Source: Pseudomonadota bacterium
GTDB taxonomy: Bacteria > Pseudomonadota > Alphaproteobacteria > Micropepsales > Micropepsaceae
Length of the DNA: 64,000 bases
Reading direction: 5' to 3'
NCBI GenBank assembly: GCA_041178445.1
Contig: JBEGVG010000064.1
Coordinates: forward strand, 34-64,033
In this document: one piece after another, positions 5,430 through 62,723 of the stretch
How positions within the stretch are numbered: the first letter of the stretch is position 1
Layout: each line of letters starts with the position of its first letter
Notes under the pieces: generated by a model
The model's database searches: none
The model's input: the letters and a program-made list of their open reading frames with translations, nothing else
Told to the model about the DNA's origin: nothing
Translations under genes and position numbers: made by a program

Positions 5430-6215
5430 ATGTCGGCTTTCGGCGCATTGGAAGAATTGCGAAACCGCCCCATTGGCGATCTGACGGGCTTGCGCACATC
5501 GCGCCGCGGCTTTCGCCAGCGTATCGCCCTGGCCTCGGATCAGCCGCTTTTCGCCGAAGCGGTGGTGGAAGCGCGCGCCGTGGGGCTGGCGGGCGAGAAT
5601 TTCTATGCCGGCAGCCGCAACCCGCCCTATTGGCGCCCCATCGACGGCGCCACCGATAAATTGTGGTTGCGCAAGACGGCGGCCGAAAAGCTGGCGCGGG
5701 TCAATGCCCGCGCCGGCGCGGCGGGACTGGAACTGTTCCTGTTCGACGCCTGGCGTCCGCGCGCCGTTCAGGCCTATTTCCATGACGTTTGGATGCCGCG
5801 GGAACTGAAGCGGCGTGGCAGCACGCTGTCCGGCGCGGCGCTGAATGAAGAGGTGGAACGCTATTGGGCCGCGCCTACCGATGATCCGGCTTCGCCCGCG
5901 CCCCATGCCACCGGCGCGGCGACGGATCTCACTTTAAGATGGAAGAATGGCGAGGCGCTGTGGATGGGCTCGCTGTTCGACGATGTCACGGCGCTGGCCC
6001 ATCGCGACCGCTTTGAATCGCTCGGGGACGAAAACTTTTCCTTCTCCGATCAGGAAGCGCGCGCCAATCGGCGGCTGCTCCATTGGCTGATGACGGAAGA
6101 AGGCTTTGCCGGCCACCCCGATGAATGGTGGCATTTTTCCTGGGGCGACCAGTTGTGGGCCGCGCTGACGGATGCGCCCGCCGCGCATTACGGGTTGGCA
6201 TCCATTCCCGAATAG
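5430..6215 (+). CDS. ddpX: D-alanyl-D-alanine dipeptidase (M15D, VanX/DdpX family)
   Basis: FDAWRP, PHATGAATDLTL, EWWHFS. Confidence 0.88.
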   Translation: MSAFGALEELRNRPIGDLTGLRTSRRGFRQRIALASDQPLFAEAVVEARAVGLAGENFYAGSRNPPYWRPIDGATDKLWLRKTAAEKLARVNARAGAAGLELFLFDAWRPRAVQAYFHDVWMPRELKRRGSTLSGAALNEEVERYWAAPTDDPASPAPHATGAATDLTLRWKNGEALWMGSLFDDVTALAHRDRFESLGDENFSFSDQEARANRRLLHWLMTEEGFAGHPDEWWHFSWGDQLWAALTDAPAAHYGLASIPE

Positions 6216-13805: not shown

Positions 13806-14183
13806 TCAGCGCTTAACCGTCTTTGGAATTTTTCTCTTCGCGGTCGCTTTTTTCGCTTTGCGCCGGGGCTTGTCCGCCAGCTGGGCGGCGCGGCCCACCA
13901 GCATGTCCTTGAGCGTCTTCTTGTCCAGCGCCGACAGCCGCGCCAGCACATAGGGGAAATTCTTATAGTGATCGGTGATGTAGAAAAGCTTAGACTCGGC
14001 TTCCAGCATCATGTCGCGCATTTTCATCGAGCCGATGCGCAGCACCATGGCCTCTTCCTTGTCATGCACCTTGGTAAGGAACTGGTCGTGGATGAAGACC
14101 GCGGGCCGGTTGAACCACAGGGTCTCCACACTGCCCGGCAGCGACAGGGCGATCTTCCAGCCTTCCTTGCGGCTAATCGGCAT
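13806..14183 (-). CDS. MmcQ/YjbR-family protein with basic tail
   Basis: IALSLPG...FYITDHYKNFPYVLARL; start overlaps mmcB stop by 11 nt. Confidence 0.75.
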   Translation of the reverse strand: MPISRKEGWKIALSLPGSVETLWFNRPAVFIHDQFLTKVHDKEEAMVLRIGSMKMRDMMLEAESKLFYITDHYKNFPYVLARLSALDKKTLKDMLVGRAAQLADKPRRKAKKATAKRKIPKTVKR

Positions 14184-14640
14184 CGGGCACCACCAGATTG
14201 GGGTTCTGCGCGCACGCGATGGCTTCCAGGTTGCGCGACAGCCGCTCGGCGGCGCAGCGCGCGAAGCTGACAGTGACCGCCTTGCGGCGGCTGGCATGCA
14301 GGCTCTGGGCCTCGGCTTCCTTCACAATCGCGCCGCCATAACGATCGGCCACGATCAGCCCGGTCTGGTGCGGCACATGCTCATCGGGGAAATCCGGCGG
14401 AATGGCGAAATAGAACAGGTCGCAGTAATCCAGATATTCCGGCCACTTCGTGTCGCAACGCAGATCGGCCAGCGCCACCTTGATTTCCACGCCCAGCATC
14501 TCGCCGCCCGGACCGATGGCGGCGACATCCAGCCGCCGGCCATTGGGCAGGGTGAATTCCAGGATGGGGGAATAGCCCTCTTCCAGCAGAAGGCGGCTCA
14601 CCCCGCGCGCGACATCCATCGCGGTGGAAGAAGAGATCAT
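14173..14640 (-). CDS. mmcB: MmcB-family DNA repair endonuclease (DUF1052)
   Basis: EFTLPNGRRLDV, VEIKV...D.KWPEYLDYCD.FYFA, GLIVADRYG, LHASRRKA. Confidence 0.9.
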   Translation of the reverse strand: MISSSTAMDVARGVSRLLLEEGYSPILEFTLPNGRRLDVAAIGPGGEMLGVEIKVALADLRCDTKWPEYLDYCDLFYFAIPPDFPDEHVPHQTGLIVADRYGGAIVKEAEAQSLHASRRKAVTVSFARCAAERLSRNLEAIACAQNPNLVVPDAD

Positions 14641-14647
14641 ATCACTA

Positions 14648-14740
14648 TCACCATGGGCGGCCTTGAGCCGCCCATCCAGAGTCAAAGGCTCGATTTCAGT
14701 TTGAAGTTCTGGATGGCCGGGTCAAGGCCGGCCATGGTGA
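14648..14740. repeat. REP-like doublet (CCATGG...ATCCAG / CTGGAT...CCATGG)
   Basis: TCACCATGGGCGGCCTTGAGCCGCCCATCCAG ... CTGGATGGCCGGGTCAAGGCCGGCCATGGTGA. Confidence 0.85.
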
Positions 14741-14746
14741 GGGTGG

Positions 14747-14812
14747 TTACAAGCTGCCCTTCGAAGACGGCGACGCGCCGTCCAATCGTTCGTCGGGCGT
14801 AATGGCCTGGCG
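14747..14812 (-). pseudogene. Displaced, synonymously divergent copy of the last 22 codons of hisB
   Basis: Encodes [21 protein letters not shown], identical to the hisB C-terminus; 56/66 nt identical to 14861-14926. Confidence 0.93.
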
Positions 14813-14860
14813 CCCCGCGAGCGGAGGCGAGCAAAAATAATGCTTTGCGACAGGCCAGCG

Positions 14861-15448
14861 TTACAGGCTGCCTTTGGAGGAGGGAGACGCGCCGTCCAAG
14901 CGTTCATCCGGCGTTATGGCCTGGCGCAAAGCCCGCGCCAGACCCTTGAAGCAGGTCTCGACGATGTGATGGCTGTTGTCGGCATACAGATTCTCGATGT
15001 GGAGGCACGCGCCGGAATTCTGGGCGAAGGCCTGGAACCATTCCTTGAACAGCTCGGTGTCCATCTCCCCCAGCTTGGGCTTGGGGATCGTCACCTTCCA
15101 GATCAGATAGGGGCGGTTGGACAGGTCCAGCGCCACGCGGGTCAGGGCCTCGTCCATCGGGATCAGGGCCGAGCCGAAACGGGTAATGCCGGAAAAATCG
15201 CCCAGCGCCTGTTTCACCGCCTGGCCGATGACGATCGCGGTGTCCTCGGTGGTGTGGTGATAGTCGACATGCAGGTCGCCGGTGGCGCGCACTTTCAGGT
15301 CGATCATGGAATGGCGCGCGAAGCTTTCCAGCATATGGTCCAGGAACCCGATGCCGGTATCGATATCGGCATCGCCGGCCCCGTCCAGGTCGAGGGAGAC
15401 GGCTATCTCGGTCTCGCGGGTCTTTCGTTCGACGGTGGCGGTGCGCAT
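14861..15448 (-). CDS. hisB: Imidazoleglycerol-phosphate dehydratase
   Basis: [33 protein letters not shown]. Confidence 0.97.
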
Positions 15449-15465
15449 TCGGTCTCTTTCAGCAG

Positions 15466-15567
15466 CTCAGGCCCGCCTCCCCATCGTGCGCGTCAGCGCA
15501 CAAGAGGGGAGGTGGTTTCAGCGATCGAGGCGCGCCAAGCGCCGAGAGGAAGCTGAAACCGGAGGGG
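15466..15567 (-). repeat. CCCCTCC...GGGGAG palindromic intergenic element, copy A
   Basis: Reverse complement shares CCCCTCCGGTTTCAGCTT, GCTGAAACCACCTCCCC and GGGGAGGCGGnCCTGAG with 16912-17007. Confidence 0.88.
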
Positions 15568-15628
15568 AAAATCGAACAAACCGCTGTATAGCACGGGTTT
15601 CGGGGTGGGGAATCCCCTGTGGCGCCAG

Positions 15629-16911: not shown

Positions 16912-17007
16912 CCCCTCCGGTTTCAGCTTTCGCGAAGCTTCGCTTCGCACGCTGAAACCACCTCCCCCTCAGATGCGCTGCGCGCATGAAGGGGAGGCGG
17001 ACCTGAG
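16912..17007 (+). repeat. CCCCTCC...GGGGAG palindromic intergenic element, copy B (inverted relative to copy A)
   Basis: Same stems as 15466-15567, different loop sequences. Confidence 0.88.
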
Positions 17008-17057
17008 TAACCGCCCGCAGGCTCGCGCCTGCGGGCGGAATGCTGTCTAAGGCACCG

Positions 17058-18676: not shown

Positions 18677-20293
18677 ATGGCCACCGCAATTTCCGCCAAC
18701 CGGCTTGAACTGCTGCAGATCGCCGACGCCGTCGCGCGCGACAAGTCCATCGACAAGCAGGTCGTGCTGGCCGCGATGGAAGAAGCCATGCAGCGCGCCG
18801 CCAAGGCCCATTACGGCACCGAGAACGACATCAAGGTCGATATCGACCCCAAGACCGGCGAGACTCATGTCTCGCGCTATCTGCATGTCGTCGAGCAGGC
18901 CGAGAACGACAAGACCGAGATTTCACTGGTCGATGCCCGCAAGCGCAATCCTGACGCCCAGATCGGCGACATCATCGCCGAGACCCTGCCGCCGGTGGAT
19001 TTCAACCGCATCAATGCCCAGAACGCCAAGCAGGTGATCGTGCAGAAGGTGCGCGATGCCGAGCGCGAGCGCCAGTATGACGAATACAAGGACCGCATCG
19101 GTGAAGTGGTGCATGGTGTGGTCAAGCGTTCCGAGTTCGGCTCGGTGGTGGTGGACCTGGGCAAGGCCGAAGGCGTTGTGCGTCGCGACGAGATGATCCC
19201 GCGCGAATCCTTCCGCGCCGGCGATCGCATCCGCGCCTATATCTACGACGTGCGCCGCGAAGCCCGCGGCCCGCAGATCTTCCTGTCGCGTTCGCATCCC
19301 CAGTTCATGGTGCGCCTGTTCGCCCAGGAAGTGCCGGAAATCTATGACGGCGTGATCGAGATTCGCGCCGTGGCGCGCGACCCGGGCTCCAGAGCCAAGA
19401 TTGCGGTGATCAGCAAGGACAGCTCCATCGATCCGGTCGGCGCCTGCGTCGGCATGCGCGGCGTGCGCGTGCAGGCGGTGGTGCAGGAACTGCAGGGCGA
19501 GCGCATCGACATCATTCCGTGGAACGGGGAAGCAGCGACCTTTATCGTCAATGCGCTGGCCCCGGCCGAAGTCACCAAGGTGGTGCTGGACGAGGACACC
19601 CACCGCGTCGAAGTGGTGGTGCCGGACGAACAGCTTTCGCTGGGTATCGGCCGCCGCGGCCAGAATGTGCGCCTGGCCAGCCAGCTCACCGGCTGGCAGA
19701 TCGACATCCTGACGGAAGCCGAAGAATCGGAACGCCGCCAGAAGGAGTTCACCACCCGTACCGCCCTCTTCATGGAATCGCTGGACGTGGACGAAACCGT
19801 GGCCCAGCTCCTGGCCAGCGAAGGCTTCGCCACCATCGAAGACGTCGCCTATGTCGATCTGAGCGAACTGGCGCAGATCGAAGCCTTTGACGAAGAAACC
19901 GCGCAGGAACTGCAGAGCCGCGCGGTGGAATTCATCGAGGCCCGCAACAAGGAAATGGACGACAAGCGCCTGGCGCTTGGCGTCACCGACGACCTCTTGG
20001 AAGTCGATGGCGTCACCCCTGCCATGGCGGTCGCGCTGGGCGAGCACGAGGTCAAGACACTGGAAGACCTGGCAGGCTGCGCCACGGACGACCTGATCGG
20101 CTATTACGAAGTGAACAAGGAAAAGGAGCGCGTGCGCGTTCCCGGTGCCCTGGATGGCTTCAACCTCACCAGCGATGACGCCAACGCCATCATCATGAAG
20201 GCGCGCGTCAAGATCGGCTGGATCGAAGAAGAGCCGGCCCAGGAAGACGTGGCCGAAGAAGGCGCCGAAGGCGAGGAGAAGACCGAAGCCTGA
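18677..20293 (+). CDS. nusA: Transcription elongation factor NusA
   Basis: S1/KH domains, [20 protein letters not shown]-like [18 protein letters not shown]. Confidence 0.98.
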
Positions 20294-20943
20294 TGATGGT
20301 CGCGACAGAAAACATGGATGAGACGAACGATGTGCGGGGCGCGCGTGAGCGCCGCGATATCGTGTCGGAAACCGTCATGCCCGACAGTCGCCTCATGCGT
20401 TTTGCCGCGGACCCCGATGGCAATGTGGTGCCCGATGCGTCGGCCAAGCTGCCGGGCCGGGGCTTGTGGGTGGCGTCCACCCGCGCCGCGATCAACACGG
20501 CAGTGGAAAAAAAGCTGTTCGCCCGCGCCGCCAAGGCCCAGGTGACGGCAACCGCCGATCTCGCCGACCGTGCCGAGAAGGCGCTGGTGACGCGGATGCT
20601 GGGCGATCTGGGGATCGCGCGGCGCAGCGGCCAGCTTCTTCTGGGTTTCGACAATGTGCTCAGGGGCCTGGAAAGCCCCAAGCCGCCCAAGGTTTTGATC
20701 GAGGCCTTTGACGGCGCCGCCGATGGCAAGCGCAAATTATACGCTGCCGCGCACCGGATGGAACTGAAATGCGTGGTGATTGAGAGCCTGACCAGTGCCG
20801 AATTGGGCTTGGCGCTGGGGCGCGAGAATGTGATACATGCCGCCGTCCAGCCGGGCGGTCTTGCCGACCGTTTGACCTTTGATGCGGAACGCCTTTCGGG
20901 CTTTCGCGAGCGGCCACTGGCCCGGAACGAAAGAGACTTATGA
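20293..20943 (+). CDS. ylxR: YlxR/DUF448 RNA-binding protein with L7Ae-like domain
   Basis: RF...PDG.VVPD...KLPGRGLW; between nusA and infB. Confidence 0.85.
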
Positions 20944-59213: not shown

Positions 59214-59281
59214 CTAACGCGCCAGCAGATCAGACCTGAGCTGGGATTTCACGATCGGTGCCTTGCCGCTCTGGCTGTGCT
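59214..59281 (-). pseudogene. Decayed copy of the 3' end of the 60398-62572 gene
   Basis: 39/43 nt identical to 60398-60440 including the TAG, then continued similarity with a net 9-nt deletion. Confidence 0.85.
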
Positions 59282-59287
59282 CAGCAC

Positions 59288-60367
59288 CTACGTCTCCGTG
59301 AACAGCCCCGTCTTGGGCGGCACCGGCAATTTCACCTTCAGCACATCGCGCATGTAGCGCACGCTGGCCGCGATATTATCGTCCACGCTGCCGGTGCCAT
59401 CGCCGGGGCGGGGCGCGTCGATGTCGAACACCGTCCAGCCCTTCCAGCGCCGCTTGCGCAGCACCGCGAACACGCCGGGAAAATCCACGCCGCCGCCCTG
59501 GCCGACCGAGGCATAGACACTTTTGACGCGGTGCTGCGCCTGGGTCGGGGTGGCCTTGTTGCCGCGATATTCCGGAAACGTGTCCTTCAAATGGAATTCG
59601 GCGATTCTGGGCAGGAACTCATCGGTGATCTTCACCACATCCATGCCGCCCAGCACATTGTGGCCGGTGTCCAGGCAGAGGAAGACATAGCGCGGATCGG
59701 TCAATTCCATCACCCGGCGAAATTCGTGTTCGCGCTCCATCGGCCCCCAGGTGTGGGGATGCAGGGCAAGCTTGACGCCATAGGGCAGGGTGCGCCGCCC
59801 GATCTCATTGGCGGTGTCCGCCAACCCTTTGAGCTGGTCGTCGCTGGGGCCGTTCGGCGGGCGGCCGCCCATATTGTTCTTCCACGGCACGATGCCCAAA
59901 GGCTGCAGCAGATCGCGGGCGCTGGCTTCCATCTCCGCTATCAGCTGCTTGCTGCCTTCGCCGCCCAGCCAGGGATAGGCACCCGCATCATTGGCGGCGG
60001 CCGGCGCGCCGGCGGGGCGGGGACGACGGGCCAGCCCGCCGACGCTGACCGGCGTTATGCCGATTTCGTCATACAGCTTCTTCAGCGCCATGGGATTGTC
60101 GAGCCACTGCGTCACCTGGCCGGGATAGGGCTCAAAGCCTTCCAGCCCGTAATGCCGGCAGTCTTCCAGCATCATGCGCATATTGCTCGACATCCGCATC
60201 GAGGTGGCACCGGGGGGCCAGACGCCGAAGATCGAACCGGTGGTGCCGAACCCGATATCGGGATTGACGGGATCGAGGCCCTTGGGCGCCGCGAAAGCGG
60301 AGCCCGCCGCGCACAGCCCGGCGACTGCAACTGTCGAGCTAAGAAAATCGCGTCTGGTGCTGGTCAT
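59288..60367 (-). CDS. Tat-exported sugar-phosphate isomerase/epimerase-like TIM barrel (AP_endonuc_2/IolE family)
   Basis: TRRDFL Tat signal, LHPHT, LCLDTGHN, FHLKD; GGAGGGG RBS. Confidence 0.82.
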   Translation of the reverse strand: MTSTRRDFLSSTVAVAGLCAAGSAFAAPKGLDPVNPDIGFGTTGSIFGVWPPGATSMRMSSNMRMMLEDCRHYGLEGFEPYPGQVTQWLDNPMALKKLYDEIGITPVSVGGLARRPRPAGAPAAANDAGAYPWLGGEGSKQLIAEMEASARDLLQPLGIVPWKNNMGGRPPNGPSDDQLKGLADTANEIGRRTLPYGVKLALHPHTWGPMEREHEFRRVMELTDPRYVFLCLDTGHNVLGGMDVVKITDEFLPRIAEFHLKDTFPEYRGNKATPTQAQHRVKSVYASVGQGGGVDFPGVFAVLRKRRWKGWTVFDIDAPRPGDGTGSVDDNIAASVRYMRDVLKVKLPVPPKTGLFTET

Positions 60368-60397
60368 GGTGTTTCCCCTCCGTTTTTATTTTTTTGA

Positions 60398-62572
60398 CTA
60401 TCGCGCCAGCGGATCAGGCCTGAGCTGGAATTTCACGATCTTGCTGGTGGTGCCCTTGCCGCCCTCGATGTGCTGCGGGGCGCGGGTCGCATAGGTGGAC
60501 CACAGGCCCTTGCCTTTCCAGCCCTTGCCCGGATCGTCGATGCGCCCGTCCAGCCCCTTGGCGTAAAAGCCCATTGGATAGGGCACGCGCAGGGTGACGA
60601 ACTTGCCGTCCTTCAGCGCCAGCAGCGCGTCGGAGGCATTGCCGGTGGCGATCGGCACATCGTTGCCCAGACCGAACGTGTCCTGCTGATCCACCCAGGC
60701 GTAATAGCTGGATTCCACGCTGCCCGGCGCGTTCACGCCCTTGAATTGCGGTCCGGGGAAGGGATACATCGTCCACCCCTCGGGACAATGATGGCCCGTC
60801 GCCTTGGGCCCGTTCAGTGGCCCCTTGCACTTGCGCCGGTCGAAGCTGGCGAACTGGCCGCTGGACAAGGACACCCAGGCGACACCATTGCTGTCGATAT
60901 CCATGCCGCGCGGCCCATAGCCCTTGGCCGCGGCTTTCGGGTCGTCGACCGGGACATAGAAGATTTCCGCGATCGCCGTCTCGGGCGGGTTCTTGCCCGG
61001 CGCGAGGCGCTGGACGCCGCCGTTCGGATAGCCCAGGAACGAGCCCCAGATCGCGCCGTCCTTCGGGCTGATCGCCACGGCGTAATATCCCGCGCGCACC
61101 CGCATGTCCTTGCCCGGCTCCTGCGGCTGGCCCGGCTCGGTATATTCGCCGCGCTTGCCGTCGCCATTGGTGTCCAGGATCAGCGCCGTCCAGCCCTGCG
61201 ACTTCTGTTCGTCGCCGGTTTCCAGATACATCTTGCTGTTCAGCCAGCCGATCACATCGCCGCCGCCGCTGGTCCATAGCGTGTTGTTCGCGTCATAGGC
61301 GAAGTTGAGATGATGGGTGCTGTAGCAGGTGTCGATCAGCGAGAATTTCTTGGTCTTAAGATAGTACACCGCCAGATTGCGCCCGGTGGTCTGGGTGGGG
61401 AACAGCTTGGCGGAAGGATGCGAGGAACCCGCGCGGCAGAAGGCCGGCGTCTCGGGGGCGCGGATGCGCTGGGTCAGCCACACCCGTCCGTCCTGGTCGA
61501 ACATCGGATTGTGGATGTTGGTCTGGCTGTCCCAGATCGGCGTGTTGCCCCAATAGGGCGAGGGCGCCGGAATCACATTGTTCTTGGTGGTGGGGGTATT
61601 GGCGTCGCGGGCCGGGGCCTTGACCATGGTGGCGACGTGCTTGGTGGGGTCCAGCACCGGAATGAAGTCGGTGCTTTCCTCTGCCGCGCCATAGAGCGGG
61701 CCATAGGCATTGACCCGCGGATTGCGCCGGTCGGTGGCGATTTCATCATGCAGATAGGCGGTGGGGCTGTGCCAGTCCCACAATGTCACCACGACATTGC
61801 GCTCGATTCCTTGCGGGCGGGGCGGCTTGGCGAAGGGTAGCTCGCCCTTCCGGACCCGGTCGGTCCAGTCGCCGAACAGCGCCAAGGCCCGCTGGGTATC
61901 CAGCCGGCCGATGCCGTTGATCATGGAATTGCCGGCCTGTCCCACCTGGATGCGATGCTCCCAGGCTTCGGCGGATGTCTTGAACTTGCCCAGCGCCGGC
62001 AGGTAATCGCGCGTGGCTTCATTGCCCAGCTGGTGACAGGTGAAGCAGCCATTGGTCTTGACCACGTCCAGCCACTGGGCCTGGCTTTTCATCTTGGGGT
62101 CCATGCCATTGCCCTGCGGCTTGGGCCCGGTGCCGGGAAATTCATTCGCCGCCGGAATCCCCAGCATGGCGTACCAGTACATCGCGGGATAATAGCGCGC
62201 CGCCGCCGCGTCATTGGGCGCGGGCACCGCCTTCAGGGTCAGCATCTTGCCCGGCGCCGACGTCACTTTGGGGGAATCCACCAACCCATAACCCCGCACC
62301 CAGATGGAGTAGCTGGCGCGCGGCAGATCGGGAATCAGAAAGCGCCCCTGATCGTCGGTCACCACGATCTTGGCATACTTGGTGGGAAGGTCCTTGGTCT
62401 CGGCGATGACCCAGACCCCGGCTTCGGGGCCTTTGGCGCCCGTGACGGTGCCGCCGATATCATCGCCGTCTATGGCGGGGGTGTTCTGCGCGGTGCCCGG
62501 CGCAACGGCGAACCAGAATGCGGCGGCCGCGCCCGCGGCCAGTGATCCACCCAACAGGAATCTTTTTCTCAT
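60398..62572 (-). CDS. Secreted protein: carboxypeptidase-regulatory-like N-domain, one CxxCH motif, beta-propeller-like repeats
   Basis: Signal peptide, GVWVIAET...VTDDQGRF..PDLP, NGCFTCHQ, repeated DG.VW motifs. Confidence 0.75.
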   Translation of the reverse strand: MRKRFLLGGSLAAGAAAAFWFAVAPGTAQNTPAIDGDDIGGTVTGAKGPEAGVWVIAETKDLPTKYAKIVVTDDQGRFLIPDLPRASYSIWVRGYGLVDSPKVTSAPGKMLTLKAVPAPNDAAAARYYPAMYWYAMLGIPAANEFPGTGPKPQGNGMDPKMKSQAQWLDVVKTNGCFTCHQLGNEATRDYLPALGKFKTSAEAWEHRIQVGQAGNSMINGIGRLDTQRALALFGDWTDRVRKGELPFAKPPRPQGIERNVVVTLWDWHSPTAYLHDEIATDRRNPRVNAYGPLYGAAEESTDFIPVLDPTKHVATMVKAPARDANTPTTKNNVIPAPSPYWGNTPIWDSQTNIHNPMFDQDGRVWLTQRIRAPETPAFCRAGSSHPSAKLFPTQTTGRNLAVYYLKTKKFSLIDTCYSTHHLNFAYDANNTLWTSGGGDVIGWLNSKMYLETGDEQKSQGWTALILDTNGDGKRGEYTEPGQPQEPGKDMRVRAGYYAVAISPKDGAIWGSFLGYPNGGVQRLAPGKNPPETAIAEIFYVPVDDPKAAAKGYGPRGMDIDSNGVAWVSLSSGQFASFDRRKCKGPLNGPKATGHHCPEGWTMYPFPGPQFKGVNAPGSVESSYYAWVDQQDTFGLGNDVPIATGNASDALLALKDGKFVTLRVPYPMGFYAKGLDGRIDDPGKGWKGKGLWSTYATRAPQHIEGGKGTTSKIVKFQLRPDPLAR

Positions 62573-62723
62573 GTCCGTTTTCCGCCATGAGTTCACGCGG
62601 CTCCATGGCCGCGCGCGGACCCTAGCACTTTGGCTTGAAATTTCAGAGTCCCGGCGCACCGGAAACAGGCTGTGCGACTTGCCCGGCCTGACAGCCTGTC
62701 GCTAACTAGGGGCGGGGAAATGG

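Follow-up and report, generated by a model that had tools for sequence, protein, structure and literature searches.

The hisB gene in the window, as we call the whole 64,000-nt stretch of DNA analysed here, is followed by a displaced second copy of its own 3′ end, and this doubled end is confirmed as a real feature that is seen across species. Our favoured explanation, which we regard as about an even call, is that the window carries one allele of an insertion/duplication scar that formed at the hisB 3′ end in one clade and was later overwritten by recombination between alleles. The insert that separates the two copies contains a member of a dispersed 27-nt unit, a genus-specific family that is previously undescribed.

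The doubled hisB end and its spacer

The hisB gene, taken from the list of open-reading frames (14861–15448, minus strand), encodes an imidazoleglycerol-phosphate dehydratase of 195 aa with a Pfam IGPD domain at residues 31–174 (E = 1.5e-65). Its closing 22 codons to the TAA stop form the translated copy, tail 1 (14926–14861, minus strand), and the same closing 22 codons to TAA recur as tail 2 (14812–14747, minus strand), a displaced and untranslated repeat with no in-frame start codon ahead of it within the window. A repeat search returned the pair as a 68-nt direct repeat (14746–14813 and 14860–14927) of 85% identity at a spacing of 114 nt, corresponding to the closing 22 codons and stop with one base on either side. 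Translation of both copies gave an identical 21-residue peptide, and all ten differences between them were silent, nine at third-codon positions and one a CTG/TTG exchange, confirming the preliminary description of a gene end that recurs 114 bp downstream with silent changes only. The silent fraction of single changes in this stretch is ~26%, and an all-silent outcome for ten random changes has a probability of ~1.4e-6 (none in 200,000 simulations).

The genome, a 2.49-Mb draft in 128 contigs, was scanned for gene tails repeated within 450 nt downstream. hisB was the sole true case among four matches, the other three being the antisense ghost of hisB itself and two internal repeats that lack a stop in the second copy. 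A second doubled gene tail (…IVKFQLRPDPLAR*) was observed in the window, belonging to a gene at 60398–62659, with the tail at 60398–60474 and its repeat at 59214–59281, the pair bracketing a 359-aa TAT-signal TIM-barrel gene (59288–60367). Unlike hisB tail 2, the displaced copy at 59214–59281 is decaying in the way expected of a neutral pseudo-tail, through missense changes and a 9-nt deletion.

Directly after the stop of tail 2 lies a MITE-like hairpin repeat of ~100 nt (14643–14745, unstranded; an inverted repeat with 38-nt arms), of which the genome contains 25 copies 70 nt or longer. It stands outside the duplication and marks the original downstream junction, and beyond it is an mmcB-like gene (14173–14640, minus strand; Pfam MmcB-like, E = 3e-42), a downstream neighbour whose synteny with hisB is conserved in G001, G009, G014, and G019. 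The junction from the stop of tail 2 through the MITE-like repeat to mmcB matches the one that follows the stop in the close relative G001, which has a single tail, indicating that tail 2 is the copy in the original position. A different dispersed repeat of ~100 nt, with two hairpins, flanks metK on both sides in inverted orientation (~15465–15570 and 16912–17010), and 34 BLAST alignments in the genome represent ~30 distinct copies of it.

The spacer between the tails is 48 nt, free of stops, and keeps the frame, as had been described for this sequence; this does not extend to relatives, whose homologous spacers measure 47, 49, and 50 nt (44–50 nt for the insert overall), so the in-frame spacer here is a coincidence. 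A read-through or in-frame extension containing both tails was rejected on the same 47–50-nt lengths and on an in-frame TGA in G014. Reading from the hisB stop, the spacer consists of CGC, a 16-nt inverted copy, the T-rich stretch ATTATTTTT (14833–14841, minus strand), and GCTCGCCTCCGCTCGCGGGG (14813–14832, minus strand), which is the 20-nt core of the dispersed unit. The T-rich stretch is also the 5′ part of the 27-nt unit, and the hisB insert carries one copy of that unit, the T-rich stretch plus GCTCGCnTCCGCTCGCGGGG. The motif CTCGCCTCCGCTCGC, singled out in the preliminary description, belongs to the core, which has a single occurrence in its own genome and recurs in relatives. A search for the spacer elsewhere in the window genome was thus negative, and the spacer was rejected as a repeat of that genome, only the downstream MITE having further copies there.

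The pairing reported earlier, between TGGCCTG in the spacer and CAGGCCA at the start of the copy, is more accurately seen as part of a 16-nt inverted repeat with 15 of 16 positions complementary (94%). The 5′ arm, GCTTTGCGCCAGGCCA (14917–14932, minus strand), straddles the left edge of the duplication and is made up of the 6 nt just before tail 1 and the first 10 nt of tail 1, and the 3′ arm, TGGCCTGTCGCAAAGC (14842–14857, minus strand), is an inverted copy of these boundary codons set 3 nt past the stop. The arms were found by inverted-repeat search and by RNAfold, and they pair in four species. In three of the four (the window genome, G055, and G195), a 14–16-bp stem is part of the minimum-free-energy fold, where the predicted stem closes tail 1 and the U-run of the T-rich stretch comes next. 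The arms co-vary between species, with changes from G-C to A-T and from GCC/GGC to GCG/CGC, and G218 shows wobbles and mismatches.

On this predicted fold, the stem and U-run may act as a terminator or 3′ stabiliser for hisB. Like intrinsic terminators with their 5′ arm in the gene end, the structure has a G+C-rich stem just past the stop, a U-run, and co-varying arms; unlike them, the predicted stem encloses ~59 nt rather than 3–8, and a consensus terminator scan makes no call there. Rfam gave no match in the spacer and no ribozyme, intron, or known sRNA, its sole match being a weak one to the MITE hairpin.

Alleles of the hisB–mmcB locus among relatives

The locus was compared across 229 species-level genomes of the genus, several of which are public MAGs labelled Rhizomicrobium sp., and in the best 20 of 80 metagenome hisB loci; L050, L053, L065, and L066 have the same coordinates and sequences as G090, G095, G094, and G088, respectively. 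Four or more further species-level genomes or contigs of the genus had the same full layout (G055, as L062/L069; G195, as L083; G218, as L085), where tail 1, the stop, 3–5 nt, the inverted bit, the T-rich stretch, the core, and tail 2 follow one another in that order. The inverted bit measures 13–16 nt in alleles of this 66-nt repeat type, and the full cassettes have a junction in common at which the GGGG of the core stands immediately ahead of the CGCCAGG of tail 2. The preliminary description had made much depend on comparable structures in relatives, and these full cassettes in G055, G195, and G218 are such structures.

These alleles bear on the possibility that the doubled end is an assembly artefact, a concatenation of the hisB tails of two strains, of the kind that a 128-contig draft might contain. 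The same order and the same specific, non-hisB spacer occur in independent assemblies of different species and from different studies (G055, G195, and G218), and a conserved 48-nt spacer with a dispersed repeat is not what an assembler bubble would introduce. Since independent assemblies have the ordered structure in common, an artefact is very unlikely.

Other relatives have simpler or reduced loci. In the empty allele, hisB is followed after ~14 nt by mmcB; it occurs in G009 and in the metagenome contigs L091, L093, L094, and L095, and the hisB proteins of these four contigs are 93–96% identical to that of the window. A single tail followed by the MITE is found in G001, and in G019 (L014), a single tail is followed by MITE hairpin arms that flank a GIY-YIG nuclease gene of ~95 aa at the hisB–mmcB site. 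Decayed cassettes take several forms: G014 (L011/L088) has the homologous spacer and then only the closing 12 nt of the second tail, the metagenome contig L102 has the closing 36 nt of the second tail left, G193 (L082) has two units and no second tail, and L092 has one unit straight after the stop and no repeat. Of these, G014, L102, and G193 retain a spacer homologous to that of the full cassettes. The G014 spacer opens with a 9-nt perfect complement to the start of its own 12-nt repeat, and the L102 spacer has a 7-nt complement at the edge of its own 36-nt repeat, a match that is not significant (P = 0.2). In a tree of the hisB body, which took in genus genomes and left metagenome contigs (L102 included) outside, all six unit-bearing genus-genome loci fell in one 10-row clade (support 94/91), and the same clade holds four single-tail alleles interleaved with the cassette alleles. 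The spacers of different hisB types are alike beyond the core, with CTTGCCG in both G014 and G218 and TTTATTTGTTTT in both G055 and G193.

Because the hisB types have spacer sequence beyond the core in common and are interleaved in one clade, we favour a single origin followed by deletions and losses. Local hisB sequence would have been duplicated in a single event near the base of a genus subclade, and candidate routes for the joining are staggered-break repair with fill-in, snap-back synthesis with capture of the unit, or replicative template switching. The scar would then have been inherited, exchanged, partly deleted (G014, L102, and G193), or lost entirely, the last probably through tail-to-tail recombination that restored a single tail. 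Duplications arise at repair and insertion sites through staggered-break fill-in, homology-facilitated illegitimate recombination, and end-joining with snap-back insertions. Like these, the hisB locus has a local direct repeat flanking foreign filler and a short inverted copy at the junction; its repeat, however, at 68–71 nt, far exceeds duplications of the transposase type, and its filler is a member of a recurring family instead of random sequence.

The preliminary description had instead read the locus as the remnant or minimal form of a site-specific integrative element that entered the hisB 3′ end and brought its own recoded tail. The model for such an event is provided by phage 21 and e14, which integrate at the 3′ end of icd in E. 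coli and whose attP carries a replacement gene end. As in icd, the 3′ end of hisB is doubled, the upstream copy completes the open-reading frame as the new end, the differences are mostly silent, and the displaced original end stays downstream on its original flank, which for hisB is the MITE–mmcB flank that also follows the single tail of G001. The second tail duplication of the window (59214–60474), which brackets a whole gene, is also in keeping with an element. In G218, tail 1 ends GSL* and tail 2 retains the native GTLSDAD*; the last three codons of its tail 1 look imported, the only relative where this is so, which argues that at least the last codons arrived with the cassette. Unlike the icd case, however, the hisB locus has no integrase, a cargo of only 48 nt, and no long allele of the phage type in the sampled genomes. 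No integrase, recombinase, or nuclease was found between the tails in the 229 genus genomes and the best 20 of 80 metagenome loci, so that of the alleles expected among relatives the empty ones exist and the full ones with a nuclease or integrase do not appear in this sample. Tail 1 tracks the peptide of its host lineage and has stretches identical to tail 2, rather than being a constant, element-borne sequence (the G218 end excepted), and the conserved part of the cargo is the dispersed 27-nt unit, which elsewhere is a plain insertion inside open-reading frames. What survives of the earlier reading is an insertion-associated duplication with the original end displaced downstream and a cargo that is a non-autonomous repeat; an element supplying its own recoded tail seems to us improbable.

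Several other candidates were also rejected. The GIY-YIG nuclease was set aside both as the driver of the duplication and as a homing endonuclease beside a recoded segment, its gene being found at hisB–mmcB only in the single-tail genome G019, within the MITE arms, with no homologue in the window genome. The MITE-like hairpin and its GIY-YIG version in G019 suggest a putative pair of non-autonomous and autonomous forms. An insertion of the MITE or transposase type does not fit a unit without terminal inverted repeats and hisB repeats of 13, 36, and 66–71 nt, with no fixed size. A diversity-generating retroelement does not fit tail differences that are of mixed base types and all silent, and on viewing the listed open-reading frames at the hisB locus, rather than by a dedicated search, no reverse transcriptase was noticed.

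Silent differences between the two tails

In each cassette genome, both tails carry the peptide variant of their own lineage (VTPDERLEGSVAST in G055 and VAPDERLEGGVAST in G218) and have identical middle stretches, indicating that the duplication was made from local sequence. Over five genomes, 44 of the differing bases lie in synonymous codons as against 6 in non-synonymous ones, and all six of the latter separate natural tail variants (GSL* and GTLSDAD* in G218; T and S in L102). The earlier claim that both copies were shaped as coding sequence is upheld by these counts together with the silent-only probability of the window copy, and the simple drift of a tandem duplicate (P ~ 1e-6 for the window copy) was rejected on the same evidence. 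At three Ser positions in G195, one tail uses a TCN codon and the other an AGY codon, which neutral drift of an untranslated copy would not yield.

The distribution of the differences offers a clue to their source. In G055/L069 (P = 0.008) and in G195/L083 (P = 0.004), they are concentrated towards the two ends of the tail and the middle is identical, a pattern that would be expected of recombination tracts entering from the gene and flank sides and halting at the non-homologous spacer. The 3′ part of tail 2 in G195 has 6 differences over 30 nt to the G001 allele compared with ~13 to its own tail 1, as counted by eye. Under the scar explanation, a functional hisB allele from a related lineage could replace either tail by homologous recombination, tail 1 being swapped along with the gene body and tail 2 along with the downstream flank, with the outcome that the tails differ like two alleles of one constrained gene. 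What looks like recoding is thus most plausibly allelic mosaicism between two versions of a gene end under constraint, and on these sequence comparisons, exchange of alleles among relatives is the most likely source of the silent-only differences, rather than an element with a recoded tail. The window copy has its ten differences distributed evenly (P = 0.55), and no donor allele was found, the tails differing from each other at 10 positions and from any sampled species at 12 or more, so for the window genome, we infer recombination as the source of the tail differences from its relatives.

The third-position divergence of the tail, taken over the last 21 codons of hisB, is raised in the cassette clade, at 0.52 compared with ~0.29 for the gene body (~1.8-fold), and we count this in favour of the scar explanation. 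The rest of the genus shows 0.49 compared with ~0.39 (~1.25-fold). Between the window genome and its closest relatives, the third-position values are 0.38–0.71 for the tail and 0.21–0.28 for the gene body.

A further observation runs counter to the favoured explanation. Had tail 2 been passed down neutrally from the root of the clade, it would be expected to carry missense changes, and none is present in four genomes; the scar model therefore needs frequent refreshing of tail 2 or a recent spread. The same observation, in a cassette that spans the clade, would be accounted for if selection held tail 2 coding-like, by either of two routes. Recombination between the tails might collapse the cassette or copy tail 2 into tail 1, so that lineages with a damaged tail 2 are purged, or an unrecognised event at the RNA or DNA level might make tail 2 the translated end in some molecules. 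The interleaving of single-tail and cassette alleles, suggestive of frequent collapse, and the raised silent divergence of the tail in the cassette clade are consistent with selection. Yet in three of four species the spacer length (47, 49, or 50 nt) puts tail 2 in a different frame from tail 1, and in the window no in-frame start stands ahead of it. G014 and L102 have lost most of tail 2 and G193 lacks it altogether, with hisB unaffected, and Rfam contains no ribozyme or intron that matches. Taken together, we judge selection on tail 2 to be quite doubtful.

The 27-nt dispersed unit

The unit is 27 nt long and consists of ~8 T-rich bases followed by GCTCGCnTCCGCTCGC and GGG, with a T-rich part that varies from site to site. 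It is non-palindromic, has no terminal inverted repeats, and is built on the direct motif GCTCGC-N4-GCTCGC. Allowing at most one mismatch, the 20-nt core gave 23 matches in 19 of the 229 genus genomes compared with 2 for a reversed control, and copy number is 1–5 per genome. When every prokaryote species was represented by a single genome, the exact core turned up in meaningful contexts in this genus only, and the other matches were chance-like. A relaxed 16-nt core pattern did no better across the genus than its reversed control and was uninformative.

Within open-reading frames, where insertions were defined against the window genome, which lacks those copies, clean in-frame insertions of 27 nt were found in glyQ of five species (L071, L074, L076, L079, and L086), in a ylxR/L7Ae-like gene of two species (L073 and L081), and in leuS (L068). 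The ylxR/L7Ae-like gene sits upstream of infB, and the window has a unit-free homologue at ~20131–20912. In proB (L087), the clean in-frame insertion is 54 nt and consists of two tandem units, and a fifth gene, on contig C112 (L070/L075), carries an insertion of ~30 nt. The unit in these relatives is a T-rich stretch plus GCTCGCnTCCGCTCGCGGG, and it lies mostly antisense to the gene, reading PASGGEQ, with leuS having it in the sense direction as SPPLAG. Neither a target duplication nor an inverted bit was found at the insertions inside open-reading frames. Further copies are intergenic, often directly after a small hairpin.

Rickettsia palindromic elements are dispersed repeats of ~100–150 bp that are palindromic and numerous and lie in frame in protein genes. 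Like them, the 27-nt unit is dispersed, of non-coding origin, and in frame in glyQ, leuS, and proB as well as intergenic; unlike them, it is only 27 nt long, is non-palindromic, and has 1–5 copies per genome (23 strict copies in the 229 genomes). A literature search for in-frame short repeats in alphaproteobacteria returned no directly relevant paper.

The relaxed-pattern search also exposed another dispersed repeat, which starts GGCC-GCTCGCTTTGGCTCGC-GGCG (L171–L190; G195, G088, and G014) and has GCTCGC-N4-GCTCGC in common with the 27-nt unit, that is, two direct hexamers one helical turn apart. This motif could be a common protein-binding site. Among viral contigs, there was a single core match, at a gene junction of L191 (IMGVR_UViG_3300048597_000622, 6049–6074), which is uninformative. 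On the opposite strand of the L191 unit, GGAGG stands 11 nt ahead of an ATG, and several other unit copies lie, in the GGAGG orientation, just upstream of start codons.

If the unit were still mobile, the hisB alleles might be independent events, in which it repeatedly hit the hisB stop and each time duplicated a stretch of target that varied in length (13, 36, or 66–71 nt) and left a snap-back inverted copy of its left edge. Three repeat lengths are found, and in each the inverted bit matches the edge of its own repeat, over 13–16 nt for alleles of the 66-nt type and over 9 and 7 nt for G014 and L102, respectively; were the G014 and L102 matches not due to chance, the structure would have been made repeatedly by a process that duplicates its target and inverts its edge. 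The L092 unit straight after the stop without a repeat, a non-hisB site (L084) where a 14-nt repeat abuts the core after a 13-bp hairpin, and a T-rich part that differs between sites like a heterogeneous tail all point in the same direction. Against this, the spacer sequence held in common beyond the core (CTTGCCG and TTTATTTGTTTT) favours common descent with deletions, the L102 match has P = 0.2, and the L084 repeat is weak given that ~20 sites were tested. Units inside open-reading frames show neither of the two signs, and a fresh target duplication starts out identical and alone does not explain silent-only differences. A reverse-transcriptase source for the unit was rejected, since genomes with the unit have the enzyme no more often (6 of 19) than the genus at large (68 of 229), which also leaves a cDNA origin of the unit without support so far. 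Recurrent active insertion is an unlikely alternative, though the main rival to a single origin.

A related and rather unlikely proposal is that the 27-nt unit is the footprint of an ultra-short insertion process, with the hisB stop as a hot spot and a self-made terminator hairpin. An abundant oligonucleotide or cDNA, for example CCCCGCGAGCGGAGGCGAGC-(A-rich) with a heterogeneous A-rich tail, might be captured at DNA breaks at gene 3′ ends, where a variable length of target would be duplicated and the hairpin built from target sequence. We know of no enzyme that delivers the unit. If this proposal were true, cycles of duplication, divergence, and collapse would quicken the silent evolution of an essential C-terminal tail.

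Whichever process formed it, the hisB locus is a case of an essential gene that survives an insertion at its 3′ end through duplication of its tail, the open-reading frame staying whole. It also illustrates that a displaced tail can stay coding-like without translation, and untranslated coding-like tails of this kind are a trap for inferences of function or of "recoding" that are based on dN/dS. The unit found between the tails has, within this genus, entered the essential genes glyQ, leuS, and proB in frame. Should the hairpin, which is formed from codons of hisB itself, function as a terminator, the hisB cassette would be a regulatory structure born of an insertion event.
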